Positions 24,018-54,090 of a stretch of 64,000 bases of DNA are shown piece after piece; the first letter of the stretch is position 1; every line of letters begins with the position of its first letter. Where the stretch lies: positions 15,686,001 to 15,750,000 of the forward strand of contig NC_082730.1 in the NCBI RefSeq assembly GCF_030144855.1, written 5' to 3'. A program made the translations under genes and the position numbers. The DNA comes from Hypanus sabinus. Its lineage: Eukaryota. The notes below the pieces were generated by a model that had not been told where the DNA came from, did no database searches, and saw nothing but the letters and a program-made list of their open reading frames with translations.

Positions 24018-24086
24018 GTAAATGTTTCAACTACAAAGCCATTTTGTTTCATCTCATCCGTTCTGTGTCTCTTCCTCTTTGGTCAG

Positions 24087-24499: not shown

Positions 24500-25030
24500 C
24501 GAACACTACAGCACAGTACAGGCCCTTCAGCCCTCCATGTTTTGCCGACCCATATAATCATTTAAAAAAAGTACTAAACCCACACTACCCCATAACCCTC
24601 CATTTTTCTTTCATCCATGTGCCTGCCCAAGAGGCTCTTAAATATCCCTAATGTTTTAGCCACCACCACCATCCCTGGCAAGTCATTCCAGGCACTCACA
24701 ATCCTCTGTGTATAAAATAAATAAATAAATAAATTACCCCTGATGTCTCCCTAAACTTCCCTCCCTTAATTTTGTACATATGCCCTCTGGTGTTTGCTAT
24801 TGGTGCCCTGGGAAACAGGTACTGACTATCCACCCTATCTATGCCTCTTATAATCTTGTAGACCTCTATTGAGTCCCCTCTCATTCTTCTACACTCCAAA
24901 GAGAAAAGTCCTACCCCTGCTAACCTTGCTTCATATGACTTGTTCTCCAATCCAGGCAACATCCTGGTTAATCTCCTCTGCACCCTCTCCATAGCTTCCA
25001 CATCCTTCCAATAATGAGGTGACCAGAAAT
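24500..25030 (-). mobile_element. CR1 LINE 3' fragment with internal (TAAA)n
   Basis: CVHFWSPHYWKDVEAMERVQRRLTRMLPGLE...RGDSIEVYKIIRG. Confidence 0.88.
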
Positions 25031-26984
25031 GAACACAATTGTACTTGTACTTCTTTCTACTTTGTGTAACTTTTATCATTTGTAGGGAGTTGACCTCTCT
25101 TGTCATTCAATTGTTAGCTTCATTAAGGTGAAAAAAATAATGTTACCATACTTCAAGACAGTGACTTTTTTTGTTTAGAATTCCACTTCCAACAGGTCAC
25201 CCCCAATGACCTCAACATTATGGCACCTTTTTGCAATGTTTTCATTTTATTGCCCCAGTAACAATTTTTTAACCCTATCATGGCTGAGAACTGCTTAAGA
25301 CTATTTTACTCTATTAAACTCTCTTTTATCCATTGAAATACCTGAGGGTGTTGTATGTTCCAAGAATGAATAAATAAGAATTTTAACTGATTATTTATAA
25401 AGTGTTAATAAGTGTTATCCTTTTGGTTTTAGTTGAGAATGAAACTTTTTACATGGTGACCAGATCGATACAGGTTCCTGGATTTTATTGATGGAGTCAG
25501 GACCATAAGACCATAAACATAGGTGCAGGAATAGGTCATTCAGACCATCAAGTTTGCTCTGCCATTCTATCATAGCTGATTTATTATTCTCCTATTCTCC
25601 TGCCTTCTCCCCATAACCTTTGATGCACTTGTGAATCAAGAACCTCTCAACTTCCACTTTAAATATACCCAATGTCTTGGCCTCCACAGCCACCTGTGGC
25701 AATGAATTTCAGATTCACTACCCTCTGGCTAAGGAATTTCCTCTTCATCTCTGCTCTAAAGGGTCATCCTTCTAATGTGAAACTGTGTCCTTTGCTCCTA
25801 GGCTCCTCAGCTATTGGAAACTATTGCATATTTTATAATTCAATTATATTTGACTTCTGTCAATGGGAAGGAGGTACCAGATCCTCAGGTCCCATGCCAA
25901 CAGGTTCAAGAACAGTGTAGCTATCAGGCTCCTGAATTAGGGGGTATAACTTCAGTCAATTTCAGTGTTGAGGTATCACAGAACACAACTTATGGACTCA
26001 CTTTCAAAGATTCTCCAGGTCATGTTCTCAGTATTATATATTTATTCATTATATTTGCACAGTTCGTCTTTCTCTGCAAATTGTTTGTTTCTCCATATTT
26101 GTGTGTGTTTGTCATCGATTCTGTTGTATTTCTTTGTTCTACTTTGAATGCCTGCAAGAAAATGAATCTCTGGGTAGCATATGGTGACATTAACGTACTT
26201 TGATAATAAACTTATCATGGTACTTTCTGAACTTTGATAAAGTGCATGATTGCTGACCTATCATAATGCACTTTGATGAAATGAAGTGAGAGGTTTCAAT
26301 GAGAAATACCTGCCCCACCCCCATTCTTCTAAACTCCAGTGAGTACAGGCCCAGAACCATCAAACACTCCAAACATTAACCCATTCATTCCTCTGATCAT
26401 TCTCATGAACCTCCTCTAGACCCTTTCCAAATACAGCACACCCTCCTATAGATAGGGGTTCCAAAACTGTTCACCATATTCCAAGTGCAGTCTGGCCAAT
26501 ACCTTATAAAGCCTCAATTCTTGGATAACTTGCCAGCAACTGACTGGAAAACATTTTATGATCCCACCATGGTATTTTCGGGCATGCACAGGATTGTGAT
26601 TAGATTTAAACACAATGGTTAAATGACCTTGTCACTTCCCCAAATTGTTCTTGTTGTTCAGTGATCTAGTTGCTGAAACAAAGTAGTTTTGCTGAAGATG
26701 TTTTGTTTCTCTGCTGATCAGCATATTGAACCATGTTTGTTGAGAAGTTTTCTAAGAAGTGATGGGACAATGCAGGAACAGACTAGAGCAATAGATCAAT
26801 GATTAGCATCTGTTGTTACTTCTTTATATTCTGTTTTGTAAGACAAGTTTTTTTAAAAAAACAGAAATTCTAGCCACATCCTTCACAGAGAGTGAACGTT
26901 ACACAGATGACAGCAGTGACTGATGCAATAGAGTCAGCACTCATGCTATACAATGTATCATTTACAAACAGAGGCAATGTGTAA

Positions 26985-30291: not shown

Positions 30292-30603
30292 AACCAGTAT
30301 CTGTTCCTGTGCTTCAATTTCTCTCTCCTTCCTGCAAATGTCTCGTGTGGTGGGGGCTCAGAGTCACTGTCCAAGAATCCCTTCCCAGTCAATACACCTG
30401 GTATGAAAACATCTCATCTGTGGATTCAAAGATCTCTGAAAACAGTAAACTAGATCTACATTGTCAATCCTTCAAACACCAACACCATCAATATTACTGC
30501 ACAGCCTCAAATACTCATGGAACAAAGTCTAGTGAAATAGTGAATGTCTCCATCTACAACTGAGGAGACAATTGCAGTCTTTTGATTCGATTTAGTGGCA
30601 CTG
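30292..30603 (+). pseudogene. Receptor copy 2: FcR/FcRL-type Ig C2 exon
   Basis: cttttccacag acceptor, gtaagt donor; PVSVPVLQFLSP...QYTWYENISSVDSKISENSKLDLHCQSF...YYCTASNTHGTKSSEIVNVSIYN*; compensating indels delete the B-strand Cys context; TGA at 30561. Confidence 0.85.
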
Positions 30604-33194
30604 GTAAGTGGTGGAGGCTGTGAATCATCAGGGTAATTGATGGAGTATAATATACTGTTTGCAAGATTCAAGATTGTATAATGTTTTTTCCAATATTCAA
30701 GTGTAAGGAGAAAAAAATAATTGTTACTCTGGATCTGATGCAGCACAAAAAAACACATTAAGATATAGATCACAATAATAAAGTAACACAATAAATATAA
30801 ATACATCAGACAGTTTATCTACATTGATTGCATGTTCATAAAGCACCACTAGGCACAATTGTGCTTGTAACTCAGGTGGCTGATATGAACTGATAAAGTC
30901 GTGGTGGTGGGTTTTGTGGAGGGGTGAGTTAGTGGAGTGGGAGTGCTAATCTATGTTCTTAAGGCTATATTCAAGCATTTATTGAATATTCTGTCTCCGC
31001 TGTGACAAATCTTGCAGAGAATGACATGTCATGTTCAGTAGTTGATTAGTGAGTCTTATACCAGAGAGTATCCTGTCTTGCTGAGTATGGTAACTTTGTA
31101 TCCAAATGGCTGATGTTTCTGGTCGCTGTCTGAGATTTCTCATCTTTGAAAAACAGCAAATGCCCAAACTCGCTGCTTTTGGATTTGTAAATGGTTTCCA
31201 GTGGTTTGTTTCATGGAGAATAGAGAGACCACAGGCTAAACCACATGCAGTTAGTGTAAGAACTCTGGAAGAATGGGCACTACTGGTTGGCTGGTCTCTG
31301 AAGACTACTCCATTATTCAATATAATCCTGGCTGATCTATACCAGGCCTTCTCTGCTATTCTGTGCCATTTTCACACAGTTTTCCATTCCCTGAACTATA
31401 TTTTAAAAAAATCTAGTTTTTTGTTCAAGTATCCCCACAGATACAGCCTCCACAACCTTCCAGGTGGAGAACTCCAAGGATTGTGAAGAAGTTCCTGTGC
31501 ATCTAATTTTAAATTACTCAATTCTAATCTTGTTACTATGCCTTGTCATTTGAGATGCTCTAACAATTGCAATTGGTTTGCTCACAGAAGTCAAATGGTG
31601 GTAGTAGGTAATGTATTCTGCCAGGATGTGGTGACCACTGGTATTGCACAATTATCTCATGACTCTTGATCTCAATCCTCTGATAAATGAAGGCCTGTTC
31701 TGGAATCTCTGTCCTTTGTGATTTTAGTAAAGGAGTTGTCAGAAGAAGTGGAAGGATTGCTTAACATGTTTTCAGAGTACACAGATGTTGGCGGTGCAAT
31801 GGAGAGTGTAGAACTTTGTCATAGGTTGCAATGGGACATTGACAGGATGCAGAGCTGGGCTGAGAAGTAGCGGATAGAGTTCTCGCTGGAAAAGTATAAA
31901 GCAATGCATTTTGGAAGATGAAATTTGAAGGCAGAGTACAATGTTATTGACAAGAGATTGGGATCCAAACCCAAATATCCTTCAAAGGTAACATGCAAGT
32001 TGATAGAATGGTGAAGAAGGTGAATGTTGTGTTGGCTTTCATTAATCAGAGTCTTGAAGTCAAGAGCCATGAGGTAATGTTACAGCTCTATAAAACTCTG
32101 GTTAGTCCACACTTGGACAATAGTGTTCATTTCCTGTCAACTCTTTACAGGACGGATGTGGAGCTTTAGGTGTTGTGGAGATTTACCTGATGCTGCCTAA
32201 CATAACAGGTATACTTAAGGGACTCTTAGATTGGCACATGGATGGTTATGTGTGGTGTAGGGGGAAGGATTAAGTTGATTGTGGAGTAGGTTTAAGGCTG
32301 GCATAACATCATCGGCCAAAGGGACATGGTGTGTTGTATTGTTCTATGTTATATACAAAAGGGTCCTGAAGGACAGATTTATTACACTGAAAGTGGGGGA
32401 GGGGGTTAATCTGGAACAAAATACTGCATGAATTGGTAGAGATGGATAACATAAAAAGATTTTAAAACATTTCTGGAAAAGGGATGTGGGCTAAATGCAG
32501 GCAAGTGTGACCAAATCAGTTAAACACACTTGTCAGTGTGACTGAGTTGAGCTGAAGGGCCTTTTCCCATACTGTATAACTCTGATGTTTAATGATGTTT
32601 GTCTAACCAATATTAGAACAGGAACAGAAGTGATTCTGTAGATGGTGAACAACAAGAGCAACAAGATGGGGGGGGGGGGGTCATAGCTTTGCTGCTGCTT
32701 ATGCGTGAGGGGGGAGCTGTGGGGGGGGCTTTGGGGTTCTAACATTTAACTGTCAATCATTTTTTGGGGGCACTCTGTTTTCGTGGATGGTTGTGAAGAG
32801 AATAAATTTCAGGATGTATATTGCATACAATTCTCTGACATTAAATGTACCTTTGAAACACACAAAATGCTGGAGAAACTCAGCAGGTCAGGCAGCATCT
32901 ATGGAAAGGAATAAACTGTAAACATTTCAGGCCAAGATCCTTCATCAGAAAGGGTCTCACCCTGAAACTTCAACATTATCAACAATTGTACTTGGCCCAA
33001 TATGTCCACATACATTCAGTGTTCATCCCTCTGGTGAGTGTTGTGACCCCAAAAGCAGATCTCCTAGAGCTGGCCTTCATGTAACCAATCAGCCCTTTAC
33101 TCAAAGAATGAGTTTCCGCATGTTACTCATGTACTCTTGCTTGACAGCACTTTGAAAACATATGAGACTGAATTTTCTTTCCTTGCCTCAACAG

Positions 33195-33240
33195 GTTGTG
33201 GATATTCATATGAAAATATTCCAGTAGAACCAAATGTGAG
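33195..33240 (+). pseudogene. Receptor copy 2: 46-nt stalk exon
   Basis: ttccttgcctcaacag acceptor, gtaaat donor; GCGYSYENIPVEPNV. Confidence 0.7.
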
Positions 33241-35258
33241 GTAAATCACTTGATCCAGTTCTGCTTAAAGGTACAATGTTCTCATTACTGATGCTATGAT
33301 TGGTCCTGCTCCTGTATGAGGGATAATTAAGGGGAAATTACAATTTTATTTCTTTGTACTGAATGCCTTTGAGAATATTGTTCACAGTTCTATAACCAGT
33401 AGTAGAACCAATGCTCTCTTACATGTTTTAAACCTGAGACTCCAAGATAAATCAACCTCTCTGAATATTCTGTACTGACTTAGACATGAAAATTAATATT
33501 GGTATTTAATTTGGAAGTAGATTATTGGCATGGATAATATATAAACAAAAGGGATAACTTCACTCAACTTCACTTGTCTCATCATTGAAATGTTCCCACA
33601 ACCAATGGACTCACTTTAAGGATTCTTCATCTCATGCCCTCGGTATTTTTTGTTTCTTTATTTATTATTTCTCTTTCTTCTTTTTCCTTTTGCATAGTTT
33701 GTTGTCTTCTGCACTCTGGTTGAATGCTCTAGTTGGGTGGTCTTCATTGAATCTATTGTGATTATTATTCAATAGATTTATTGAGTATGTCCACAAGAAA
33801 ATGAACCCCAGGGTTGAATATGGTGACATATATGTACTTTAATAATAAATCTTCTTTAAGCTTCAGGTTTCACATCATGCTGTTGTATAATAGAATCACA
33901 TGATCCCAGAATCGTACAACACAGAGAAAGCCCATGAGGCTTTCCACTGGGCATCCACTACAGTACTGTGCAGAAGTCTTGGGCACGCTAGGTGTTTTAT
34001 ATGGTCTCATGTGGTATGGTCTCCATAGAGCCCTGATCTCAACATTATCGAGGCCGTCTTGGAAAGATAGAAGCAACTGAAACAGCCAGATTCTGCAGAA
34101 GAGCTGTGGCAAGTTCTCCAAGTAGATTGGAACAACCTACCAGCTAATTTTCTCACAGAACTGCACAATAGTGTACCTAAAGAATTGATTAACTTTTAAA
34201 GGCAGAAAGTAGTCACACCCAAATATCAATTTGATTTAGCTTTTTACTGTTTACTTCTCTTTGATAGTTAGCTTTTCATATCATTATTTTTGAAAGCATC
34301 TTTACTTTACAGAATTATTTTACACTTCCCTAAGACTTTTGCACAGCACTGTATATGAATATTATCTTCCAGAACATGTGTCGAAGCCTTCTATGGAGAG
34401 GTGACATAAGATCTCACTCAGACACTTCACAAATACGGACTGTGACTCAGGTACATGGTTCCCTGAAAGTGGAGTCTGGGGTAGACAGGGTAGTGAAGAA
34501 GGCTTTTGGCATCAGTCAAAGTAGAGCAATTGGAAGATGATGTTGCAATGGTTCAAGACAATTGATGAAATGATACTTGGAGAATTATGTTCAGTTTTGA
34601 TTCTCTGCTGAAGAAGAAATGTCATTGAGCTGGATGAATTGAAGAAAAGAATTCAAATTTCAAAGTCCATTTATTATGAAGGTATATGTATGTCACCATT
34701 TACAACCCTGGGATACACTTACATGTGGGCAGACTCAGTAAAAACAATAACCATAAGAGAATCAACAAACAACCGCAATGAAAGATGTTGCCATTGCCTT
34801 GAAAGTATTTGATATTATTCCTAAATGGTTCCATTTTTTTTTATCATCCTAATTACATTTTGTGGTCATTTCATTGCCCTGATTGATTTACCCTATTGTT
34901 TCCCCAATTTACAAAGTCACTTATTGGCATTTCACACATTCTGTTGTGAGTGAGTCCTATAAAAAAATTTTAATGTAATTTCCCTATATCTACAGTTGTC
35001 CAGAGAATAATGATATTTTTGTGATCAGATTTTTGATGATATTTCGGTATCATGGAGGCACTTCATTCTCTATCATTCCTAAACCGATTTTTCACTTTGC
35101 AGTTTCTAATTCAAAGATCTAATTTGTTTGTGACCAAGTCCCAGTGATCAGGTCTGTATCTGATGATCACCAGTTGCCCCCCATACCCTCAGTAAATGTT
35201 AGTTAACTCCTCTAGATGAACTGCTGCTCTAGCTCTGGTTATTTGCCTTGCTCCACTC

Positions 35259-35915
35259 TGTCCAGCGGCAGGCATGGCTTATTCTGATTGTTGGAAGTCG
35301 CTTCCTTTGTGATTGGTTAGCTTAGAAAGAAGCTTATTAGTTATTACACTCTGGGGTGGGGCTGCTGGCCTTTTGGGGCACAGGGAAGCTGGTGGACAAC
35401 TGTAGTGTACTGGGGGATGATATTGTATTGTACTGTGTTTTGTATGTAACTTAGCAGAGAATTCACAAAGGTCATCCTTATCGTCACAAGGGTTGGATCA
35501 CATGGTGTTGTAACTTTCAAGGGGTGGTGTGCCCTGTGGAGGGGCTTATTCTGATTGTCAAAAGCTGCTTCCATCCTGATTAGTTAGTTTAGAAACTGCA
35601 GATGGTTTTCCCATTGGTAAACGGCCTGGTGTCCAGTGTCAAATATCCTGGGTATAAAAGAGCACATGGAAGAGGCTGGCTCTTTCTTCCTTTGTTTAAG
35701 GCAAGTGGTGCACATAACCATCGGGCAGGTATGCTTTGCATGTGCTTTTAGCTAAGTGTGTTTGTAGATTCAACTTTGTAGTTTCTGTAACTTGGGAACA
35801 TGAATATTTGGTAGAATTTTTATTGTTTGTAAAAAAAAAAATGATTAACATATTTATTTACAGCCAGTGTTTTCTGTCTCACTTGCCAGACCCATAAACC
35901 TGATTCAACGTTACA
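35259..35915. mobile_element. Solo LTR (657 bp)
   Basis: TG...CA ends; 5-bp TSD cactc at 35254-35258 and 35916-35920; internal tataaaa near 35654; absent from the paralogous site near 23990. Confidence 0.9.
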
Positions 35916-36006
35916 CACTCCACAAAGGAGACAGGAGGTAAATATTTCAAACACAAAGCCATCTCGTTTCACCTCATCAATTTTGTATCTCTTCGTCTTT
36001 GCTCAG

Positions 36007-36164
36007 TTTCAAGGTATGAAAAGTGGGTCATTGGCTACTCTTCACTCTCCTAAATGATCTGCATGAGTTCAGTGATGTTGTTCACAAGAGAAACTAACGT
36101 AGGCTTATGGACATCAGTGGAATTTGCTTTCAAATATTCTTTTCATTTGAGGAAAGACAGTTAA
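36007..36164 (+). pseudogene. Receptor copy 2: transmembrane and short tail exon
   Basis: FKV*KVGHWLLFTLL/MICMSSVMLFTRETNVGLWTSVEFAFKYSFHLRKDS*; alignable to 24087-24243. Confidence 0.78.
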
Positions 36165-38299
36165 ACACATTTAACTTTTCTTATCCAATGGTCAATCCAA
36201 AGATATTTGCAGATAATATTGACAAGATGTTGACACACTGTAAATGTGCAGAATGCTTGATGTGAATATATTGAAGTCCAAGCTCCAATAACAACTCTAA
36301 AGCAGAGCTCCCAGTGTCAATGGATCTAATGATTTGATCATTGCCTTTTACAGAAACCTGATGAATCAGACCCTCAAAGATTGATCTATAAGGTAAAGTG
36401 AAGGCTTCTGGATCACACAGATTGTGCTGGAATTTTACACAAAGATCAAATATTCATTCTTCTTCCCACTTTGTGCAGCTTTCTCATTTGTGGAGAATTA
36501 ACCTCTGTTGTCATTCAATTGTTAACTTCATGAAGGTGAAAAAACGTTACCATACTTCAAGACAGTAACTTTTGTTTTATCATTCCATTTCCAACATGTC
36601 ACTTACCTTGGTCTCAATCGCATGGCACCTTTTCACAATGTTTTCTTTTCATTGCACAAGCACCAATTTTTAAGCCTACCATGGCTGTGAACTGCTTAAG
36701 ACCATTTTACTCTATTAAATGCTGTTCTATGGATTCAAATGCCTGAGGTGGTGGTTGTTGCATGTTTCAATAACTAATAAATCAATTAAAATTCTTCTTT
36801 TTAAACTCTAGTTGTAACTTTTATAAGATATTAGTTGAATTAATGCAAGACCAAAATCATAGTTTTACTTGTAGGTTCTTTTTAACTGACATAATTTATA
36901 TTTTCAACAACTTGTATCTTTAACAAACTCTTGTTTCATGGTATGTGGTGATTCATCCCCACTTGCTGGCAGAAAGTGATATTGCAGTTACTTATTGGTT
37001 TATTACACCTTTTCATTTTTTAATTAGCTAAATGTTAGCACATAATACGTTATAATTGTGTAGCATTTTAACTCATTTGTCTTTATCTAAGGAATTTTTG
37101 TTATCTGGATTATAAAGATTTTTCAAAACTGCAATACTGAAGCTATGGAATATCTTTAATTTCACGCCTCTCATCTGCTTGGTATCACTGTTACTTTGTC
37201 TGCTTAGTTATGTATAGAACGGGTGAACCCAAATGCAGGACACTGGCTCGGAGATAGAGTCAGGATTCAGACAAGGGTGCGAACATGGCTGGAGCTGAAC
37301 GGCAAACAGGAGGATGAACAGAAAGGCAGGCGGCAGGCAATGCTTCTCTTGACTTGGAGAGACAGAGTTAACATAGGCAAACCTCAGTACTGCAACAAAA
37401 CTTAGAATGCACAATCCTAAACAGCCGGGAATCTGAATTACCACACTTTCTGAAAAAAACAATCTGGCAATGAGTGGACACAAAGCCGGGGTATTTATGC
37501 TGCAGGTTTGGATGAGAATCAGGTGTGTCACAATCAAGGAGCCCAGGAGGATACAGGGAAAAGGGAATGAGGAGAATATGAGGAATCAATGGTCAGGACC
37601 ATGACAATACCAGCCCCCACCACTCAACAGGAGCCACCAGGTGAACCACCAGGCTTGTCGCAATGGAAGTAATGGATGAGGGATGAGTCTAAGATGAAGG
37701 ACTTCCAGACCTTGCGGCTCCAGCAGAGATGGTCCTGAACTGAAGGCACAGCAATGTCATCTTCATGGGCAGGAAACAGAGGGGGTTGATAGCCTAGGGG
37801 ACATACCAGTGGTGGCGCTGGTCAGGGAGTTGTGGACATTCTCAATCCAAGTGAGGTGCGTGCTCCAGGATGACAGGTTACTGGTGGAAATGCAGCGCAG
37901 TGCTGCTTCCAAGCCCTGATTGGCTCACTCCATCTGACTGTTAGTCTGTGGATGGAAACTAAAAGACAGACTTGCTGAAGCTTCGGGGCTTGACAGAAGG
38001 AGTTCCAGACTTGGGAGATAACTTGGGGGCCCCGGTCAGAAATTATGTCAGAGGGAATTCCATGAAGGCAGAAGATGTGTTGGACAACAAGTGTTTCACA
38101 GACTGCAGGGAGTTTGGGAAGGGCTATGAAGTGCACGGCTTTGGAAAAACAGTCCACCACGGTGAGTATAGCCATGTGAAGGGGGTAGTCCGGTGACGAA
38201 ATTGAGAGCTACGTGGGACCAAGGGCGGCCAGGGACAGGTAGGGGACAAAACAGACCAGCAGGTGGCCAGTGGAAGGCTTTTCCATGGGCACACACAGT

Positions 38300-38858
38300 A
38301 CAAGTCGTCGAGTCACTTTTTATTGTCATTTTGACCATAACTGCTGGTACAGTACATAGTAAAAATGAGACAACGTTTTTTCAGGACCATGGTGTTACAT
38401 GACACAGTACAAAAACTAGACTGAACTACGTATAAAAACAACACAGAAAGAAGAATCTACACTAGACTACAGACCTACCCAGGACTGCATAAAGTGCACA
38501 AAACAGTGCAAGCATTACAATAAATAATAAACAAGGCAATAGGGCAGTAAGATGTCAATACCAGTCTGGGTATTGAGGAGTTTGATAGCTTGGGGGAAGA
38601 AACTGTTACATAGTCTGGTCATGAGAGCCCGAATGCTTCGGAGCCTTTTCCTAGACAGCAGGAGGGAGAAGAGTTTGTATGAGGGGTGCGTGGGGTCCTT
38701 CATAATGCTATTTGCTTTGCGGATACAGCGTGTAGTGTAAATGTCCATAATGGCGGGAAGAGAGACCCCGATGATCTTCTCAGCTGACCTCACTATCCGC
38801 TGCATGGTCTTGCGATCCAAGAAGGTGCAATTTCCAAACCAGGCAGTGACGCAGCTGC
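38300..38858 (-). mobile_element. Rex1/Babar LINE 3' fragment nested in the sushi integrase
   Basis: CVTAWFGNC...RIVRSAEKIIG...RCIRKANSIMKDPTHP...TRLCNSFFPQAIKLLN; interrupts the integrase ...STC|TVC motif. Confidence 0.85.
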
Positions 38859-39343
38859 GCAGGTGGATACAAAGGAGCAAGTGACAGCATCTATAGTGGG
38901 CCACCAGAAATGTTGCTAGAAAAGGGACAGGGTTTGACCGATTCCAGGATGGCAGGTGAACCGGGAAGTATGCCCCCACTGGAAAACCTGAGAACGGACA
39001 GAGTCAGGCACAAAGGGACAATTACCTGGGTCAGGTTGAGTCCATTGGACCTCTCTAACCACAGACTCGATCTCCCAAGTGAGGGCAGCCATGCACAGGA
39101 TGGTGGAAAGATGGTATCAGGATTGGAAGGGTCCTCCTCGGAGATATACTGATCAGACAGAGCATCGGGCTTCACGTTCCTGGAACCAGGATGGTAGGTG
39201 AGGGTGAAATTGAAGCAGCCAAAAGACAGTGCCCAACGGGCTTGGCGGGTGTTAAGGCATTTAGCTGTCTGAATGTATGCCAGGTTCTCATGATCTGTCC
39301 AAACGATGAATGGGTGTTCTGCTCCCTCCAGCCAGTGGCTCTA

Positions 39344-39511
<168 letters not shown>

Positions 39512-40048
39512 CTATGAACTGGCGAGATGGGTTAGGCTGGACCAGGATGGGAGCGGAGGTGAAAAGCCTCTTAAGCTCTGAGAAGGCTGAGTCTGCTTCG
39601 GGAGTCCAGTGGAAGGAGGTCGCAGGAGAGTGAGCTGAGTAAGGGGCGCTGCCACCCGGCTGAAGTCCCTATGAAGCGACAGTAGGAATTGGTGAATCCT
39701 AGAAATTGCTGGACTTGTTCAAGCATCTTCAGTTTGGGCCACTCTGCCACCACCCGGATCTTTTCGAGATCTGCCCTCACCTGCCCACTCTCAATGATGT
39801 ACCCCAGGAAACTGACGGAACGGGCATGGAATTCGCATTTCTCAGCCTTAATAAATAGTTTGTTCTCCAAAAGCCTCTGAAGAATCTGGCGGACATGGTG
39901 CGTGTGCTCCTGGAGGTTACAGGAGAAGATTAGGATATCGTCCAGATAAACGAAAACAAATCAGTTGATAAAGTCCCTATGGATGTTGTTGACCAGAGTC
40001 TGGAACACTGCGGGAGTGTTGGTCAAGCCAAAAGGCATTGACCAACTA

Positions 40049-40634
40049 CAGTTGGCCCTGGTGTAGATTATCTTGGATCGGAATAAAAAAAACAGAAGTT
40101 TTCTTACCAAGTAAGTCGGAATACGTACATCTGGTATTATTTAGTGGCAGTTAGTCAAATGTTTGTCTTAGTATGGTAAAATATGGACTATATACTATGT
40201 ATAATAAAACACTTAAGAAACATATGTATTTCAATAATTAAACCACTGTGTTGCTTAGCAATAATTGTAGCTTTCATCGGGGCAGGGCCTTTCTCACTTT
40301 CTCCTTTAAAACTGTTCTGATCATTGACCGACTGTAGCCTAATGCTTTTCCAATGGCCAACGGCGTTTCACCTTTTTCTGATCGCTTTATTTCCACTTTA
40401 TTTTCAATTGTGATCGTGATTACTTTCGTGAACAGAAACACTGCAAATTCAGAGCTCCACCGCCGGGTCCTAATGTCCACCGCACTGAGACTGATTAAAT
40501 AAAGTCCGGGATTCCGCTGGGTCCTAAAAACCACCTCACTGAGACAGGTTAAATAAGGGACTTGAGCATCTGCGGTTTTTGGTATCCGCAAGGGGTTCTG
40601 GAACCAATTCCTCGTGGATAAGGAGGGCCGACTG
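40049..40634 (-). mobile_element. Tigger/pogo-type DNA transposon (deleted) nested in the sushi RT
   Basis: TIRs cagttggccct / agggccgactg, TA duplication on both sides, N-terminal HTH ITIENKVEIKRSEKGETPLAIGKALGYSRS. Confidence 0.88.
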
Positions 40635-43439
40635 TATTCAAAATGGTCAAGGGGGTGTTAAAGGCTGTCTTCCATCCATCTCCCTCCCTTATCCTGACCA
40701 GGTGACAGGCATTCCACAAGTCCAATTTAGTGAAAACTAGGGCTCCGTGAAGGGGCTCGAATGCAGAGCTGACAAGGCGCAAGGGATACTTATTCTTTAT
40801 AGTAATGTTGTTCAGGCAACAGTAGTCGATGCATGGGTGTAGTGAACTGTCTGTTGGTTTCCGGAGAGAAGGAGAAGCGGGGTTCCATGCAGTGCATGAC
40901 TTGGGCCAGGAGTCTACCGTCTAGTGCCTGAGCATCCAGGGGATACACAAAGGCTCACGAGGAATACCGACTTGGAGGGCTAGATTTTCATCCATGAAGT
41001 TTCCCTCTGCGCCGGAGTCCACTAGCGCTTGCAGAGGCAACGGCTGTTGGTTGTAACACAGAGTGGCTTGAAGCTGCATCCAGGGTTGGGGGATGAAAGG
41101 GAAGGTTTTCTGGCTCACCAGAGTCCCCCCGCTACTGGTGAGAACTCCCTTTTGGCCAAAGGGGGCAGGAGACAAGGAAGTGGCCAGACTGACCGCAATA
41201 TAGATACTTGCCTGCTCATTCTCCGGAGATGTTCAGCGGGAGAAAGCTGGGTCCACCCCAGCTGTATGGGTTCCTCTCCCAGAGCGGTCAAAGTGGCACT
41301 GCTGGGAGCTACTTGGGGTGCAGAAGGAGGAGAGAAGCTTGCTCTGGCAGGAGGCGGCAAAGAATGTCGAGAACTGGCCAAAGGTGGTGGACGACCAGTT
41401 CTCTCTCTATGGCGCTCTCGGAGGCGATTGTCCAACTGGGTGGCCAGGGAGATCAGGTAATCCAGAGTGTCAGCATTGTTTCTCGCAGCCAACTCATCCT
41501 TCACCAGGATGCTGAGTCCATTCAGAAATACCCCCTGGAGTGACTCATCGTTCTACCCCAAGTTGGCTGCTAACATCCTGAACTCCACTGAATATTCAGC
41601 AACACTGCAGAAGCCCTGAATGAGTAGGCACTTGGCGTCTTTATCACGGACGGGGTGATCGAAGACTTTTCTCTTCTCCACAATAAAACTGGCAAAGGAG
41701 GAGCAGATATCCAGTTGGTTGTCCCAAACTGCTGTGGCCCACGCTAATTTGCTCCCCCGTAACAACCCCATGACATAAGGAATTTTAGACTTATCTGTGG
41801 AGTAAGTCAACAACTGCTGTTCAAACACCAGGGAGCACTGAAGGAGGAAACCCTGGAACTTCCCCAAATCTCCCACGATCTACTCCGGCTCTGGTACATG
41901 AGGATCTCTGAGCGGGGGTGTTGGTGCAGTTTGGGGGGGTGGGGTTGCCACTACAGGCTGTCTGGGCTGGCTAAGCTGGGTTCCAGGAGTGGGTTGAGTG
42001 ATATGATTGGAGACCTAGTCCAGCTGGTTACCGATCTGCGTGACGTGAGCAGACAGGGAATGGAGATTCTCCATTCCCTCCTGGAGGAGTTGGTTGTGCT
42101 GTCCCAATAGGGAACCCTGGCTGGCGAAGGCTTGTTGAATGGTGTTGTGTCCGTTGGGTCCATGGTGGCCAGATTGTTCTGATGCACAGAATGGGTGAAC
42201 CCAAAGCACAGAACACTGGCACGAAGATAGAGTCGGGATGCAGACGAGGGCGTGAGCGTGGCTGGAGCTGAAAGGCAACCAGGAGAATGAACAGAAAGGC
42301 AGGCAGCAGGCAATACTTATCTTGACATGGAGAGACAGAGTTAACACAGGCAAATCTCAGTACTGAAACAAAACTTAGAATACACAATCCTAAGCAGCCG
42401 GGAACGTGAATTACCACACTGGATGAAACAACGATCTGGCATTGAGTGGATGCAAAGCCGGGGTATTTATGCTGCAGGTTTAGATGAGAATCAGGTATGC
42501 CGCAATCAAGGAGACCGGGAGAACACAGGAAAAGCGAATTAGGAGACTATGAGGAATCAACGATCTGGACCGTGACACTTAACAGTTGTCTTTTGTTTAA
42601 ACTTTAAATAAACGATTGAAAGAATCAAACTTTTTCACTCTATTGAACTACTAAAAGAACTTAGTGTTTGTTAATAGTAACCCCTGATGTTAGTAAGTAG
42701 TTTATCCATTTGGTGTAGTTGAGAATGAAACTTCATGCATCTCAATAGATCACATTCAATCTCTGGGATTTTCTTAAAGCAGTCAAAACCAAAGAAGCAA
42801 GATTAGGCCATCTGGCCCATCAAGTCTGCTCTACCATTCCATCATAGCCGTTTTATTATTGCTCTCAACCCTATTCTCTTGCCTTCCCCCATAACTTTGA
42901 TGCCCTGAATAATCAAGAACCTATCAACCTCCCCTGTATGTCTATCCAATAACCTGACCTCCACATTCACTCTATCCAGGTCATTCAATGTGTACTTTGA
43001 TAAAAAATTTACTTTAGACTTTGAACTAGAAGCAGAAGTAGGTGATACACCACCTCAGTTGGTTTTCAAAGAAGGTGCTAAAAACCCAAAAGTAAAACAG
43101 CAGGCTAGAAACATTCAATAGTAGCATTCCTCCATATGAGGCATATGTTCTTCTCTATAATTACATCATCTGTCTATGAGATTCATGGAGGAACATGATT
43201 AAAGGAGGTTGTGTGCTTTTTTTCCTCCTCTACTGGTTTATTTGATCTTCAACTAATTATTCTAAACAAGTAAGTAAAACCATGTCACACAATTGAAATG
43301 CTGTTCATTCTCCTGAATGGCATTAGATTTCCAAATCTGTTCTATCTTGTCATCTCTGGTTAGGACAAAATTCCAATGCACAACACACCAGTTTCAACAA
43401 AGAATTCATTTGTAATTGACTGCCATAAAATAGGTGAGA

Positions 43440-43991: not shown

Positions 43992-45535
43992 ACAAAATCT
44001 GTGATATGTTAATTCACATGAACCTTTATTTAACTGACAAAAGTACAAAGAAAAGATTTTCAATAGTTTTACTGACCAACTTTGTAAATATACACAAATT
44101 TAGAATTTGATGGCTGCAACACACTCTACAAAAGTTGGGACAGAGTTAAAATAAGATTGTAAAGTGCACAGAATATTCAAATAACACCGGTTTGGAAGTC
44201 TCCACATTAAGCAGGCTAATTGGTAGCAGGTGAGGTATCATGTCTGGGTATAAAAGCAGCGTCCGTCAAAGGCTCAGTCTTTGCAAGCAAGGATGGGTCG
44301 TGGCTCACCCCTTTGTGCCAAAATTCGTGAGAGAATTGTTAGTCAGTTCAAAAGGAACATTTCCCAACACAAGATTGCAGAGAATTTAGGTCTTTCAACA
44401 TCTACAGTACATAATATTGTGAAAAGATTCAGAGAACTCAGAGACATCTCAGTGTGTAAAGGACAAGGTTGGAAACCACTATTGAATGCATGTGATCTTC
44501 GAGCCCTCAGGCAGCACTGCCTAAGAAACCATCATGCTACTGTGACAATTATAGCCACTTGGGCTCAGGAGTACTTCAGAAAACCATTGTCACTTAACAC
44601 AGTCCATCGCTGCATCCAGAAATGCAACCTGAAACTGTGTTACGCAAGGAGAAAGCCAAACATCAACTCTATGCAGAAACGCCGGCGAGTTCTCTGGGCC
44701 CGAGCTCATCTCGGATGGACCGAAAGACTATGGAACTGTGTGCTGTGGTCAGATGAGTCCACATTTCAGCTAGTTTTTGGAAAAAATGGGTGTCGAGTAC
44801 TCAGTGCCAAAGATGAAAATGACCATCCTGATTGCTATCAGCGAAAGGTGCAAAAGCCAGCATCTGTGATGGTATGGGGGTGCATCAGTGCCCACAGCAT
44901 GGGTGAGTTGCATGTATGTGAAGGTACCATTGACTCTGAGGCGTATATTAGGATTTTAGAGAGACATATGTTGCCATCAAGGCGACGTCTCTTCCCGGGA
45001 CGTCCATGCTTATTTCAGCAGGACAATGCCAGAGCGCATTCTGCACGGGCTACAACAGCATGGCTTTGTAGACACAGAGTGTGTGTGCTTGACTGGCCTG
45101 CTGCTAGTCCAGATCTATCTCCTGTTGAAAATGTATGGCGTATCATGAAGAGGAGAATCAGACAACGGAGACCACGGACTGTTGAGCAGCTGAATTCTTA
45201 TATCAAGCAAGAATGGACAAAATTTCCAATTGCAAATCTACTACAATTAGTATCCTCCGTTCCAAGACGATTAAAAAGTGATATTAAAAGGAAAGTTGAT
45301 GTAACACAATGGTAAACATGCCTCTGTCCCAACTTTTGTTGAGTGTGTTGCAGCCATCAAATTCTAAATTTGTGTATATTTACAAAATATAATTAAGTTG
45401 GTCAGTAAAACTATTGAAAATCTTTTCTTTGTACTTTTGTCAGTTAAATAAAGGTTTACGTGAATTAACATATCACAGATTTTTGTTTTTATTGCATTTT
45501 GGAAAATATCCCAACTTTTCTGGAAATGGGGTTTG
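43992..45535 (+). mobile_element. Tc1 DNA transposon, IR/DR type, left TIR truncated
   Basis: Right TIR of about 215 bp ends ggggtttg|TA; left TIR matches except for the missing outer ~45 bp. Confidence 0.95.
44293..45315 (+). CDS. Intact Tc1 transposase (DD34E, 340 aa)
   Basis: MGRGSPL..., paired-like HTH, WSDES, FQQDNA + 34 aa + E in SPDLSPVENVW; no stops; tataaaa at 44249. Confidence 0.95.
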   Translation: MGRGSPLCAKIRERIVSQFKRNISQHKIAENLGLSTSTVHNIVKRFRELRDISVCKGQGWKPLLNACDLRALRQHCLRNHHATVTIIATWAQEYFRKPLSLNTVHRCIQKCNLKLCYARRKPNINSMQKRRRVLWARAHLGWTERLWNCVLWSDESTFQLVFGKNGCRVLSAKDENDHPDCYQRKVQKPASVMVWGCISAHSMGELHVCEGTIDSEAYIRILERHMLPSRRRLFPGRPCLFQQDNARAHSARATTAWLCRHRVCVLDWPAASPDLSPVENVWRIMKRRIRQRRPRTVEQLNSYIKQEWTKFPIANLLQLVSSVPRRLKSDIKRKVDVTQW

Positions 45536-45537
45536 TA

Positions 45538-48251
45538 CATATAACCCATAATTATTTAAACAGACAAGGATGCTTAATCAACAAGATATTTGCAATATTA
45601 CTCAGATATTACTGAAATATATGAAATACACAACACTTCTTCCTGCTTAGCTATAAATTCCAACTTAATATAGAATGCATCTCAACTATATAATCAGTAT
45701 ATTATATAATAACACTACTGTACACAGATATCAATGGCATAGTAATTTTTAATTTATCCCATTCAGGCTTAAAGATTAAATCACTGTGGAGGATGTCTTG
45801 CTTTTGTGAGATAATGTCTTTCTTGATAAAGGAGGTCAACCTGCTTAGCAGGTGAGACATGGCTGTGAAAACAATCTGAGGTTCTGAAGCCTCCTCCTTG
45901 GTGGTTGTAGGAGTTGATTCTGAGACTGCAGGAAATGGTTCTGACAGCTCTGGACACCTACCTTCTTCCTTTTTCAGCTTCTAGCTTGCGTACCTTGTTC
46001 TTGGGAGGGTGCATTTAATTCACTAGTATGATCTTATTAATCTTTCTATTGCTCCCTTTCTGATCCGATCTCTTCTCTTGGTTTCCTGATCCACAACATC
46101 ATCTGATGAATCCTCTGTTTTCATATTTCTCTTTCTTTTTGGCCTTCCATCCATCCAGCTGGGCTTTGGTCATTGCAGCTGCTTTTGCAAACACCTTTTA
46201 GTCTTCTACTTAATGCACGCAGAATAGGTTCTGTTTTATACTCACAAAAGCCGAATGCTTGCAACTTTCCTGAAGCTCCCTGAACTCTCTTCCAGCTGCC
46301 AACTAACATAGCAGAAGCTATCTCAGATAAGGTGACTACAAAAAATGTTGTAGTTGGCAATGCTTTCATCACTTTCACAATTCCTCTGAGCAGCATGGTC
46401 CCTCCTTGGTCCAATATGCTTTCCATCCAGTGGCACAGAGATTGGCACCAACATGTTTGTCCTCTTGGGTTCATGGTGTTCGACATAAAGACAGTTGTGA
46501 CAGCATCTAGTATCTTATTTAATTCACTTTCATTTGACTTGATTGCAGGGGATGTGGCATGCAAATTGTATGGTTATCCTATCAAATTGTAGTTGTCTCA
46601 GCCAATCATGTCCCCACAATGCTGGCCCTTCTGTTTTTACCACATAAGAGCTAAACTTAGTTTGTTGTATTTCACTGTTATGAATGTCATTCCCACAGGA
46701 TTTATTATTTCCTCAGAACAAGCTCTTAATTGAATATCTGCAGACTTCAGTTTAGTATCTTTGAAATACTGTTCAAACTCATTTCCTGGAATGACTGAAA
46801 CTGCTCAACCAGTGTCTAATTCCATTTTAATTAATTTGCTGTTCACTTCTGGTGTCAGCCAAATTGCTTGTCTATTCAAAAACACGAGAAATCTGCAGAT
46901 GTTGGAAATCCAAGCATTACACACAAAATGCTGGAGGAGCTCAGCAGCACCTGTGGAAAAGAGTAAACAGCTGACATTTTGGGCCAAAGCACTTCATTAG
47001 CATTAAGTTCCTCCAGAATTTTCTGTGTATTGCATGCTTGTCTATTGTTAGTTTTCATATAATAAATCTCAAGGCTATACAGTCTTGTGTTAGCCTCATC
47101 ATTATCAGATTCTTCATCAACAGCATGTAGATTAGTGCTCTTTTTGAAATTGCAACTTGACTTTTTATGTTTTTCTCTTCTCCGTGCAGTCCATTTATTT
47201 TTGGCAGCCTGACATTCCCTTTGTATATGTCCTACTTCATTGCATTTTCTGCAAGTTTCACCTTTACAACCACATTTGTTCTGTGAATGGGAGCCCCTGC
47301 CTCAAGAGTACACGATTTGTTCAGCCAAGGCAGTTTCCGTTTAGATGCTGCAATTTTGATCAAGCTCACTTTCATTCCTGACTGCAACTCAATTGTCTAC
47401 CTGTGGCTTCCATTGAAACAGCAGTTTAAACTGTTCTTTTGAATGTAAGTTGGGAACCGTTTTTGAATGCTTTCTTTTAAGATTCCATAAACTAAACAAT
47501 CTCAGTGCATCTGACAATGCTCAGACAATCTCTTCAATTCAGCCAAGTATGCTGAAATGCACTCCCCTTCCTTTTGATTCCACTTATGAATCCTAAAGCA
47601 CTCTGCAATCAGCAATAACTTCAATTCTAAGTATTTGTGCATCACTTTGACAATCTCAGCAAAGTTCATTTCTGATGGTTTGGTTGGAGCAGTCAAACTT
47701 TGAAGCAAACTGTATGCCTTTAAACCCAATGCACTCAGTAAAACTGGCACTCATTTCTCATTGGCTCATTTGCTTCAAAATACTGTTCCAATTGCTCAGT
47801 TTCTGAGCCAATTATATAAACAAGAGAAAATTTGCAGATGCTGGAAATCTGAGCAACACACACAAAATGCTGGATACAGTCCTACTGAAGGGTTTCAGCC
47901 TGAAGCACCGGTGGGACTTTTTTTCCATAGATGCTGTCTGGCCTGCTGTGTTCCTCCAACATTTTGTGTGTCTTACCTAATGTGTAATTAAACTCGTCAA
48001 TCTTTCTGATGTAGTCAAACATTTTTGATTCTTTAATGATTATTATCAACCAATACTCGCTCTTTGAACCTTTAAATCCTTCCTTTCTCTTTATAGATTT
48101 CAGCTTGATATGGCAACTGTTCTACTCTGGACCATTGAAACCTGCAGAGATTGGTAAACACTGCCCAGTCTATCACAGGCTTGTCAATTCCTTCCATACA
48201 AACCCATCTTCATGTTGTGTTGCACTAGGAAGTCTAACAGTATCGTCACCA
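45538..48251 (-). mobile_element. Mag-like Gypsy relic carrying a captured host mRNA fragment
   Basis: PBS-like tggtgacgat 48242-48251; gag from ATG 48022 (PVLLSALGLKAYSLL...NQKEGE); protease MELDTG (DTG at 46808-46816); linker; RBM25 insert; integrase C-terminal tail PELSEP...; PPT 45634-45646; 3' LTR from 45633, cut by the Tc1. Confidence 0.8.
45962..46486 (-). pseudogene. RBM25: Intronless internal fragment of RBM25 (N-terminus, RRM and following region)
   Basis: LVP...GKHIGPRRDH...PTTTFFV...SWKRVQGASGKLQAFGFCEYK...LRAL...DQETKRRDRIRKGAIERLIR..SELNAPSQE matches RBM25 as I recall it; several small deletions and frameshifts. Confidence 0.9.
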
Positions 48252-48979
48252 ATGCCCACCACTCTGGCCATTCCCTTTTCTCTCTTCTATTATCAAGGGC
48301 ATGCTGTATTAGTACCAGAAAGTGAGGCAATAGTTGAGGGATGCACCCAGAGCATCCTTAGGTTCTGTTGGTTGTTAATGCAAACAATGCATTTCACTGT
48401 ATATTTCAATATACATGTGATAAATGAATCTGAATCTGAATAAAAAGACACAGGAGCTTAAAATCTCAGCTACCAGACTCAAGAGCATTTTCTTCACCAC
48501 TGCTGTCAGACTTTTGAACGAATCGTCTCTGTCACAGTCCTTCCTGGTGGTGCTACCAGTTCTCAAACTCTTAATTCGACCTCTTCCGCCATCATCGCTT
48601 CACCATTTCTTTCCGCACAAGTTCAGTTTGCACTGCCATACTTTGAACCGTTCCAGTGTTTAGCACTAGTTGCTGTTCTGTCTTGTGAACATTATGTGAG
48701 CAAGGAATTTCATTGCACCCTGGTGAATTGAAATAAACTAATCTGATCAGATGGATGCCTAGAAATCAGATTTCACCATTATTTGCTGCTGTAACCCTGT
48801 GTGCATTCAGGGGACATTTACAAATGCACTTGTGAACCACTTTTCCTCGTTGTAGTGCACTTTAGTTTTATCAGTGCAGATCTCAATGGAGTCTGCCCAT
48901 GAAAATTGTGGCTGCTGCACCATTATAACTGTATAGATGGCTGCCCTGAAGGAGGGAATATACACAGGGCAGAGAGATC

Positions 48980-49700
48980 CATTCACTCACTGCATCAGGA
49001 CACAAGCCCCATCCCCTGCTATATCACTCACACACCCAGACATATGCTCTGGAGTCAACTATTGTGTCCAATGCAGCCTTCTCTACATTGGTGAGACCCA
49101 TCGGAAATTGGGGGGGGGCCCACTTTGGAGTGCACCTCTGCTCCACCTACCAGAAGTTGACCTGCCCAGTGGCCAAACACTTTAATTCCGATCTCCATTC
49201 CCATTCCAACATGTCGGTCCACGGCCTCCTTTTGAGACTACCCTCAGGGTGGAGGAGCAACAATCTATATTCCATCTGGGTAGCCTCCAACCCAATGGCA
49301 TGAATATCGACTTCTCCTTCTGGTTAAAAAACGCCCCTTCCTTTTTCCTCTATTCCCCCATTTTGACATATTAACACCTCTCACTTGCCTATTACTTCCC
49401 CCGGGTCCCCTCTTCTCTTTCTCCTATGGCCCACTCTCCTCTCCTATTAAATTCCTTTTCCAGCCATTGACCTTTTCCACCCACCCAGCTTCACCAATTA
49501 CCTTCCAGCTTGTCACCTTACCACCCCCCCTCCACCCATGTTTTTATTCTGGCACCTTACCCCTTCCTTCTCAGTCCTGAAGCAGGGTCTCAGCCCAAGA
49601 CGTCAACTGTCTATTCACTTCCACAGATGCCACCTGACCTCCCGAGTTCCTCCAGCATTTTGTATGCGTTGCTTTGGATTTCCAGCATCTGCAGATTTTC
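48980..49700 (+). mobile_element. Penelope-like element: GIY-YIG endonuclease relic plus terminal repeat
   Basis: YCVQCSLLYIGETHRKLG...PVAKHFNS...HSHSNMSVHGL...EEQQSIFHLGSLQPNGMNIDFS. Confidence 0.85.
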
Positions 49701-50849
49701 TGGTGCTTACGATATGCTCAAAATAACCGCAAATCACTGAAAGACTGGATAAAGCATTGAATCTCTGGTGAAAAGCTGTTGCTGGCAGATAGACACACTG
49801 AACTGATCTGTTGCACAAACAAATCAGTAATCCATCAGATTCAATGAGGGAGTGCAAAATGGATCTCCCTTGGGTCACCTACATTCGCACATGTTTACCA
49901 ACATAGTGCAGGATTTGGATACACAAGAGAATGCAGATGTTGCAATCTACAGTAAGAAACAAACTGTTACAGGAACTCAGCAGGTCAGATTGCACCTGTG
50001 GAGGCAAAGAAATGGTTGACATCTTAAGTCAAGACCCTGCATCAGCACTGAGATTTTTAGATGATGTACCTCAAGTTCAAGTTTAATCATTCAACCATAC
50101 ATGAACCTGCATGGATACAACCAAATGAAACAGTGTTCCTCCAGGGTCAAAGTGCAAAACACAACACCAACAGTCATACAAAGCACAAGGAACAAGTAGC
50201 ACATAAAAGATAGCAGTAAACATACAGTCACACAAAAATTATAATAAAGCTCAAGTTCCTAAGTAAAATATCCCATAAAATGATGGTGCATGGGTGTTGT
50301 CAGCAAGGACAAGCAGTTCTCAGCAGTCCACAATCCAGCTTGCATTCCATTGAGTGACCACCAGAGAGCAGCACCAATGGGATGGCCAATCCCAATCCAG
50401 CATAGACATCATGCCATATTGTCTCTGCTGTCTTGCCTCCTGGACTGCTGCAACAGGGAAGCCTGAGACCAAGTCATTGCTACAACCAAGGCCACGTAAC
50501 TCCCATGCCATTGGTCTTTCCAACAAACCAGTAAATTGAACTTGCAGTATCTTACATTACCAGTATCCAACAGTGTCTTGTGTTCATAAGAAAAATGTTC
50601 AAGACAATCACTCTCAGTTAGTCTGAACACCTCCTTTGTGCATTGACTCCAACCCCTTTTTGCAGCACACTGCAACATGGTCCACACCAAGTCTAGCTCC
50701 CCAACTAGTAACTCACTGAGGTAGGCCTCAAGTAATTGAAGTTCTAAATGCCCAGTATTGCCTTACAATTGTAAAAGAGGCATTTATATAATACAAAAAG
50801 ACCTTTGGTTGGCCCCAGAGGGGCTGCTGCATCCGAGCATGGCATTGTC

Positions 50850-52605
50850 TTACTGGTAAATTGTTGGTTGTGGAGAATGCTGCATTGCAACATGCAAGGA
50901 GGAATTTGGCTACATTCCAATTCAGTGTGGTGTGTCCTGCTGACATTGCTCAGAGTGCATTCTTTAGATTCTAGCCAAGCCATTTGTAGCTGGGTGGTAC
51001 GATGCAGATGTAATATGTTTTATTCCATTTATTTTCAGAAATGTTTGAAACTGTTCCACAACAAACTGTGGTCCATTGTCACTGACTAAGTGTTCTAGAC
51101 CACCAGTGCTTGAGAAGAGGCTTCTCAACACATTGACAGTGTGTGAGGCTGTAGTGGAGGCTTTTGGGAACACCTCTAGACACATTGTAACCGCATCCAC
51201 TACTATCAAGAAATTTGTGCCAATGAATGGTCTGTCAACATGAATCGTCTGCCAGGGCAAAGCATGTTATTCCCAGGGATGGAGGGTCCTGCTCTTGGCA
51301 TCTTCTGGACATGTTGGCATCCAGAACAGTGAATGGCAAGCTGCTTGATCTGTCGATCTATCCCAGGCCATCAAATAAAGCTTTCATTTTGACTATGCCT
51401 AGATGACCAACATGTAGTTCATCCAATACTTTAGCTTTCAGCTTGGATTGTAAAACTCTCAATCCCCATCTAAGGCAAACCTTGTGAAGGTCAAGTTCAT
51501 CCTTGCACTGGTAAAAATGGGGCAACTGGAATTTATACTGCACATTCCAACCGTTTTATATTGCAATGTGGAACTGAGACAGTTGGGGTCTTTTCTGATT
51601 TCTGTTTGGATCATCTCTTCCTTTATAGGAAGATTTTCAATTTGCATTTCATCAATGGTTTCAGTTCTAAATATTCCTGCATTACATTCATGATATCAGC
51701 AATGCTCATTTTGGTTAGTTTGGTTGGAGCACATAAACTTCTAAGCATTCTGTATGTTTTTCTACCTATTGCACTCAGCTATGCAGGCCCTTGTTTTATT
51801 GGTTATTTAATTTGCTTCGAAATACTTCTGTTCATTCAGTATACATCATCCAGTAATCTGTTGTGCAATCGAACACTTCTATCTTTCCAATGTCACCAGC
51901 CATTTCGGCTTTTTTTTAAGTTCCAAGTTCAAAGTTTTATTGTGAAAGTACATACAGTATATATGTCACCATATACAACCCTGAGATTCATTTTCTTGTG
52001 GGCATACTCAACAAATCAATAGAATAATAATTATAACACAATGAAAAACATGAAAGACACTCAACTAGGACTTTCAAAGAAATTCAGAAGACAACAAATT
52101 ATGCAAATAGAAGAAGAAACAATAATAATAAATACATAAGCAAAAAATATTGAGAACATGAGATAAAGAGTTTCTGAACGATTGCCATACTTGTTGCTTG
52201 TTAATTTTGTCCATTTAGTGCCTTTTTTTTAACTCAAACCTTTTGTTCCCCTTCTGAAAAGAAATGCCCTGCACTTCTTTCACTCGAATGTCTCTCTCCC
52301 CTTCAGAACAAAAGAAAACTATATTTCAACAGATAGTCGTCTTGGGTTCATTTTAAAACTTCCTCAATGTCACTGTTATGTTTTGTACCTTCAGAATCTA
52401 ATTGAAAGAAAAACACGGAAGCCGGGACATGCTTTATCTACTTAGTTTTTCATTATTGAGGCAATTTCATATGACATTGTGGCATGATGATATAAGCTCT
52501 TCATGTACTTCTTACATATAAACAATAATAAATTATGCAAACAAAGAATACTTAATCAAGCAATAATTAATTATTCAAATATTACTGAAATATTGAATAC
52601 ATTAC
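50850..52605 (-). mobile_element. Second Mag-like Gypsy relic (5' LTR, gag start, RNaseH-integrase)
   Basis: LTR about 52375-52605 (tgttatg...ttaca); gag N-terminus 51690-51900; LHVGHLGIVKMKAL, PWQTIHVD, LVSDNGPQF, YHPATNGLA. Confidence 0.82.
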
Positions 52606-53702: not shown

Positions 53703-54090
53703 CACTTAGTCAGTGACAATGAACCACAGTTTGTTGTCGAACAGTTTCAACCATTCCAGAAAATAAATGGAATAAAACATATTACATCTGCATCGTACCA
53801 CCCAGCTACAAAGAGCTTGGCTAAAATCTAAAGAATGCACTCCGAGCAATGTCAGCAGGACACACCACACTGAATTGGAAGGTAGCCAAATTCCTCCTTG
53901 CATGTTGCAATGCAGCATTCTCCACAACCAACAATTTACCAGCAGTGCTGTTCCTGGGTCGTCCCTTGTGCTCACACTTGGATCTCCTCAAAACCCAATC
54001 TCAAAAGGAGTATGCAGGACAAACAGCCAAGACAAATTCAGGCTCTTTAAGCAAGGAGGTTCATGGTTTCACTCCTAGACAAGCAATAAG
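53703..54090 (+). mobile_element. Inverted copy of the Mag-like integrase segment
   Basis: About 240 bp nearly identical to the reverse complement of 50850-51092. Confidence 0.85.

Follow-up and report, generated by a model that had tools for sequence, protein, structure and literature searches.

A decayed chimera of a Ty3/Gypsy element and an RBM25 coding fragment in the genome of Hypanus sabinus

Retrocopies of cellular genes in vertebrates are usually credited to LINEs, and the 14,081 retrocopies that have been catalogued in cartilaginous fishes were linked to non-LTR elements, with no RBM25 named in the main text of that 2026 preprint (10.64898/2026.06.26.734816). LTR-mediated chimeras, in which a piece of mRNA sits inside an LTR retrotransposon, are described by Tan et al. 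(2016; PMC5131818) for Drosophila, mosquito, zebrafish, chicken, and mouse, as well as human. In zebrafish, 5 of the 7 recent retrocopies that could be assigned were LTR-mediated, and three were flanked by Gypsy sequence. The same source reports secondary transposition of chimeras and, for old LTR-mediated cases, loss on one side (PMC5131818). Its description of such retrocopies also includes microsimilarity at the switch points. Our search of the open-access literature (subscription journals mostly lie outside it) turned up neither an RBM25 retrocopy of such a kind nor LTR-mediated retrocopies in cartilaginous fishes. The word "rbm25" does not occur in the nine supplementary files of PMC5131818 that we searched, but this does not exclude the gene, because the parents are given there by Ensembl identifier.

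Here we describe a chimera of host RBM25 and a Ty3/Gypsy element on the minus strand of a 64-kb window (by which we mean the whole stretch of DNA that was analysed, 64,000 nucleotides of contig NC_082730.1). The chimera is a real feature: read along the minus strand, the order is gag, protease, a coding piece of RBM25, an integrase-like C-terminus, a polypurine tract (PPT), and the remnant of a 3' LTR (Table 1). The core of pol is replaced rather than interrupted. The continuation of the linker is absent, as are reverse transcriptase (RT), RNase H (RH), and integrase (IN), and similarity picks up only at the integrase C-terminus. The gap is about 2.5 kb, or about 850 codons unaccounted for relative to a full-length relative. 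Within this interval, none of 150 hits showed similarity to the core of RT, RNase H, or integrase. The Ty3/Gypsy domain order in the window is limited to gag, protease, and the tail, and the full protease-RT-RH-IN order is found in the full-length relatives P0238 and P0204.

Table 1. Parts of the chimera and of its immediate surroundings, by position in the window.
Feature	Position	Strand	Evidence
Tc1-type DNA transposon, a later insertion that cuts the LTR at a TA	43994..45535	+	DDE_3, HTH_Tnp_Tc3_2
5' part of the 3' LTR (100 bp), stopping at the TA of the Tc1 insertion	45536..45635	-	LTR similarity
Polypurine tract	45636..45648	-	Sequence
Putative integrase C-terminal tail with stop codon	45769..45961	-	Alignment to P0123 C-terminus; motif in relatives
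RBM25 fragment, probably processed, aa ~53-240 including the RRM	45962..46454	-	Protein search and frameshift-aware alignment
Junction segment of 32 nt, possibly an upstream RBM25 exon after decay, a piece of the element's leader, or filler	46455..46486	-	Three candidate readings
Aspartic protease with its DTG motif at 46816-46808, then the post-protease linker	46487..46876	-	Alignment to Gypsy polyprotein
Second short repeat, a later insertion with 12-bp TSD	46877..47034		Self-comparison
Main part of gag with the zinc-knuckle region, damaged by stops, frameshifts, and deletions	47035..47816	-	PF00098; 144/190 nt identical to neighbouring gag
Short interspersed repeat inside gag	47817..47971		Self-matches to 32858-32907, 46880-46935, 49651-49709
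Gag start, ATG at 48022	47972..48022	-	37/54 nt identical to gag start of neighbouring element
LINE ORF2 C-terminal fragment, outside the element	48097..48298	+	Matches to LINE ORFs from elsewhere in the window by tblastn (E 3.9e-10 and 1.2e-5)

Gag, the DTG protease, and the linker, which an earlier note on this DNA had recognized from the letters alone, align together with the zinc knuckle to a Gypsy polyprotein from the fish Metynnis (P0123) up to position 46487, and the gag body has a PF00098 match. A protein search with the flank against 1.84 billion representatives returned 2023 matches at E ≤ 0.001, with P0123 leading. (The gag start was placed by nucleotide similarity; its protein alignment by itself is not above shuffles.) Upstream of gag, we found no match to a 5' LTR, a primer-binding site (PBS), or a leader. 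The lack of a 5' LTR agrees with the earlier note, and because both the 5' LTR and the PBS are absent, there is no LTR pair and no target-site duplication (TSD) of the element. A PBS-like site had been proposed at 48251-48242, and we rejected it because it lies inside the tail of a LINE ORF2 on the plus strand. Several features had been overlooked: two repeats inside the gag region (47971-47817 and 47034-46877), deletions in the RRM, and the truncation by Tc1 at 45535.

The identification of the insert as RBM25 is borne out by protein searches. The open reading frame at 46124-46573(-) matched 262 of 857 candidates, and the named ones were RBM25 or RRM/PWI proteins. All 106 named RBM25 references (taken from 120 listed matches, with 14 unnamed or mixed ones left out) match the window only in its 46-kb bin, with a best E of 2.6e-23. 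In a frameshift-aware alignment, residues 53-240 of lizard RBM25 correspond to 46454-45962, with 97 of 163 codons identical. The parts of the insert that vary between lineages score best against RBM25 from lizard, Xenopus, and bichir, not against the teleost copies, and a search for a closer RBM25 from the host lineage gave none among 96 candidates. The first 50 or so residues of RBM25 and everything beyond the Lys-rich stretch are missing. Thus, the extent that had been proposed holds from the RRM to the Lys-rich stretch, but the extreme N-terminus is absent. Damage to the insert comprises 2 stop codons, roughly 4 frameshifts, and, within the RRM, two deletions of about 30 and 20 nt. Between these two deletions, at 46294-46232(-), 20 conserved RBM25 codons around RNP1 are unchanged, and elsewhere about a third are changed (p = 0.024 in a scan test that allows for position, for a run that was picked post hoc). 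A downstream stretch, KLEEEKGKK, could also be read into the 27 nt that close the insert, but we did not adopt this. This reading was the best fit in 33 of the 106 references, with 4 substitutions (low-complexity stretches reach 5), and it demands an additional deletion of about 120 nt.

The best-supported reading is that the insert is processed, that is, that it probably derives from spliced RBM25 RNA. We took recurrent breakpoints among 105 named gene models of other vertebrates, compared with a reference, as likely exon boundaries; these fall after T52 (3 of 105 models), at K110 (2 of 105), at G182 (2 of 105), and after D243 (9 of 105). In the human RBM25 gene, a third internal junction lies inside RNP1. 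The insert spans the K110 and G182 junctions without intron-sized sequence, and there is none anywhere across residues 53-240. However, the K110 junction lies within the 30-nt deletion and the G182 junction lies beside a short deletion, which weakens the case for precise splicing. The insert is sense-oriented with the element, both of its ends are internal to the RBM25 coding sequence, and both are near inferred exon boundaries, so the earlier description of it as co-oriented, mRNA-internal, and intronless stands. It also stands that poly(A) and a TSD are lacking: the longest run of A in the insert is 5, and no repeat abuts the insert junctions. Of the direct repeats shared by the two junction zones, the best agrees at 10 of 11 nt, and we rejected it as a TSD because it abuts neither junction and because the flanks are different parts of pol. 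More broadly, the earlier note had named a single-exon match or intron sequence, a TSD or poly(A), and differing flanks as evidence against its reading, and none of these was clearly found.

Where the Gypsy sequence gives way to RBM25 is less sharp than had been claimed. RBM25 is clear only from 46454 and Gypsy similarity stops at 46487; the proposed start of RBM25 at 46486 was not confirmed, as 55 of 500 shuffles matched the upstream RBM25 residues as well as the 32 nt in between (46486-46455) do. Part of this segment and the first bases of the insert (46474-46449(-)) match 22 of 26 nt at 52351-52327(-), in the leader of a neighbouring related element. This is the best match in the window (1 of 100 shuffles was equal), but an unrelated LTR element scores nearly as high where its gag begins, at 42167(-) (30 versus 33). 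The 3' junction is purine-rich, as reported. Right after the insert is a donor-like AAG/GTAGGT (45964-45956(-)), which could be the start of an intron or element sequence.

On the other side of the insert, 45944-45772 matches the exact C-terminus of P0123 with a score of 63, versus a maximum of 35 in 40 shuffles, and a similar C-terminal motif ends 4 of 14 long relatives. The tblastn E value of the tail against P0123, which is also the top relative for gag and protease, is a weak 2.6. The integrase tail of the earlier note is therefore upheld by the alignment score but not by a database search with the tail's open reading frame (0 of 62 candidates), and the assignment, which rests on one distant relative, would be weak on its own. 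Downstream of the tail, in the expected order, are a stop, a purine tract, and the start of an LTR. The purine tract (45648-45636) comes directly before an LTR that begins with TG at 45635, which confirms the PPT and 3' LTR that had been proposed. The LTR remnant is 75% identical to the LTR at 52609-52513 and 80% identical to the LTR at 54757-54674. We did not find the remainder of the LTR beyond the Tc1 element. The Tc1 element is young, with an open 340-codon transposase, but its left inverted repeat is short of about 50 outer bases and abuts the apparent end of a different LTR, which implies a deletion that also took the rest of the chimera's LTR.

The window contains no long host-gene open reading frame: those of at least 130 amino acids are mostly transposon-like, and other LINE and Gypsy fragments are present. 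In its repeats, the stretch appears to resemble rays or sharks. A related Gypsy element at 52620-50830(-) has a 5' LTR and leader and then jumps directly from early gag to integrase, a further large internal deletion, here with no visible insert. It resembles both flanks of the chimera (gag at 144 of 190 nt, LTR at 75%), which supports a single family on both sides but does not prove a single insertion. The LTRs at 52.6 and 54.7 kb carry PBS-like ends of their own. The latter (54767-54521(-)), the third LTR of this type, has a PBS-like remnant with no gag behind it, and its 80% identity to the chimera's 3' LTR remnant makes it a candidate for a displaced 5' LTR. An integrase segment of 240 bp occurs twice, in opposite orientations (50853-51092 versus 53703-53942, 96% identity, with different continuations), which reflects either a recent rearrangement or a feature of the assembly. 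Farther away are an LTR element (37210-42577) that has both of its LTRs (86% identical) and encloses the remnant of an RNase H and a fragment of a LINE; a tandem segmental duplication, old and about 6 kb long (19000-25400 and 30300-36800, 77-90% identity, spacing of about 11-12 kb); and a nearly full-length LINE of the L1/Tx1 type (13040-18328(+)), with ORF1, with an ORF2 that is broken into three long frames, and with endonuclease and RT domains. We found no second copy of the chimera within the 64-kb window and no fused Gag-protease-RBM25 protein among the matches listed in our protein searches. An exact look-up of 8 open reading frames from the window in a protein collection found none of them (0 of 8), and an Rfam scan of 43-56 kb gave no match. 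The chimeric open reading frame had no match in Pfam, PDB, or the atlas, because its RRM is too decayed.

The chimera probably arose by LTR-mediated retroposition with a double template switch. A spliced RBM25 transcript would have been packaged together with the RNA of a Ty3/Gypsy element. During minus-strand synthesis, RT would have copied the 3' end of the element and the integrase tail first, jumped to the RBM25 RNA near the Lys-rich stretch, copied about 0.5 kb of it, and returned to the element RNA just past the protease. The product would be a chimera that keeps both ends of the element and loses about 2.5 kb of RT-RH-IN, which is the layout that we see, and enzymes supplied in trans would have integrated it. 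Neutral decay would have followed, leaving the two repeats in gag, the Tc1 element in the 3' LTR, and the stops, frameshifts, and deletions that are present today, and the 5' LTR would have been lost or displaced along the way. The insert has no abutting TSD, whereas a neighbouring repeat retains its 12-bp TSD, which favors a template switch. Two things speak against it: a near-intact LINE in the window carries endonuclease and RT domains, and the locality is rich in large deletions.

These last two points lead to what we consider a rather unlikely but serious alternative: a LINE (L1/Tx1) could have placed a 5'-truncated retrocopy of RBM25 into the pol of a resident Gypsy element, and one later deletion could have removed the 3' part of the retrocopy along with its poly(A), its downstream TSD, and RT-RH-IN. 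A single deletion would yield the same layout, so the swap of RT-RH-IN for RBM25 mRNA that the earlier note claimed has the best support but is not the only reading. Deletions are frequent both in this locus and in its neighbours (the jump from gag to integrase and the missing Tc1 end), and the retrocopy counts reported for cartilaginous fishes are tied to non-LTR content (10.64898/2026.06.26.734816). However, the deletion would have to span multiple kilobases and yet spare both ends of the element, the insert shows no sign of being younger than its flanks, and by eye there is no T/A-rich nick motif within about 20 nt of the 5' junction. The shared orientation of insert and element would be a chance of 1 in 2.

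We give much less credence to two other origins, which we rate about equally. One is DNA repair in a resident Gypsy element, where a double-strand break or a gap would have been patched with RBM25 cDNA or RNA while pol was deleted. Two internal ends without poly(A) or a TSD would also be expected from repair, and the 32-nt junction segment could be explained as filler, but repair does not predict the retention of both element ends or the reading direction, and template switching is documented for exactly such a layout (PMC5131818). The other is that splicing set the ends of the insert at exon boundaries, with capture of, for example, a read-through transcript or a pre-mRNA that retained the intron after the Lys-rich exon. 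The clear match does begin with V53, where 3 of 105 models suggest an exon start, and it stops about 3 codons short of an exon end inferred from 9 of 105 models, with the donor-like bases immediately after it; also, switches near exon junctions were reported for one family in PMC5131818. Yet the 5' side of the insert lacks a pyrimidine tract that resembles an acceptor, three codons are lacking before the inferred boundary, and the donor-like hexamer may be element sequence (the 7-nt motif AG/GTAGG occurs 9 times in 128 kb).

Insert and flanks appear to be similarly decayed, which fits a common age. At conserved residues defined by an 80% threshold, 19 of 82 are changed in RBM25 and 9 of 42 in Gypsy (Fisher p = 1.0), and at a 90% threshold the counts are 17 of 71 for the insert and 3 of 20 for the flanks (p = 0.55), but these comparisons have low power and the yardsticks differ between insert and flanks. 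Judged from its sequence, the present copy is a dead pseudogene that is neither mobile nor coding, because gag and the protease are broken, the 5' LTR is absent, the 3' LTR is cut, and the RRM is deleted. This copy carries a splicing-factor RRM, as the earlier note had pictured, but not a working one. It is conceivable, though we think it quite unlikely, that an ancestor encoded an in-frame Gag-protease-RBM25(RRM) fusion and spread as a non-autonomous family in a cartilaginous-fish lineage. In that case, the LTR promoter would have expressed the RNA-binding domain of a splicing factor, perhaps aiding the packaging of the element or the control of its splicing. The only hints for such a fusion are that the linker and the RRM core share one 150-codon open frame today and that the codons around RNP1 form an unchanged run, as might result if the sequence had been copied a second time or had been under constraint for a while.

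If our preferred explanation of a template switch is correct, then this locus would extend LTR-mediated capture of mRNA to another vertebrate lineage, and it indicates that such events remain recognizable despite heavy decay. A single dead copy changes little, but a multicopy in-frame family, if true, would be a real case of domain acquisition.

Like a processed pseudogene of the L1 type, the insert is an intronless and decayed copy of a housekeeping mRNA. Unlike one, it lacks the 3' end of the mRNA, poly(A), and a TSD (a later deletion could have removed these), and its flanks are discontinuous parts of one type of element. With K02A2.6-like polyproteins such as P0123 (Metynnis, KAL6460959.1) and P0126 (Poecilia, XP_014876941.1), the chimera is collinear from gag to the linker and again at a basic, proline-containing C-terminal motif, but it is missing RT, RNase H, and the integrase core. 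At only 42-49% identity, these proteins are relatives and not the family itself; we take the K02A2.6-like Ty3/Gypsy relatives to belong to the Mag clade. Cellular exons also lie within an LTR element in place of pol in two cases that PMC5131818 cites, maize Bs1 and human HERV-K/FAM8A1. Bs1, however, is described there as having three parents, being present in several copies, and encoding a product, whereas the RBM25 chimera has one parent and no intact reading frame. The closest counterparts, as described by Tan et al. (2016), are the BLASTOPIA retrocopies of Drosophila, the Gypsy-flanked retrocopies of zebrafish, and the IAPEy and MERVL retrocopies of mouse. These too are partial mRNAs truncated at both ends that replace part of the internal reading frames without poly(A) or a TSD, and the vertebrate ones are often decayed. 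The RBM25 copy differs in its host lineage and its parent gene, is older and more decayed, and has only a remnant of the 3' LTR with no adjacent 5' LTR. The capture of RBM25 most likely adds one more case to a known route by which elements take up mRNA and does not represent a new system.
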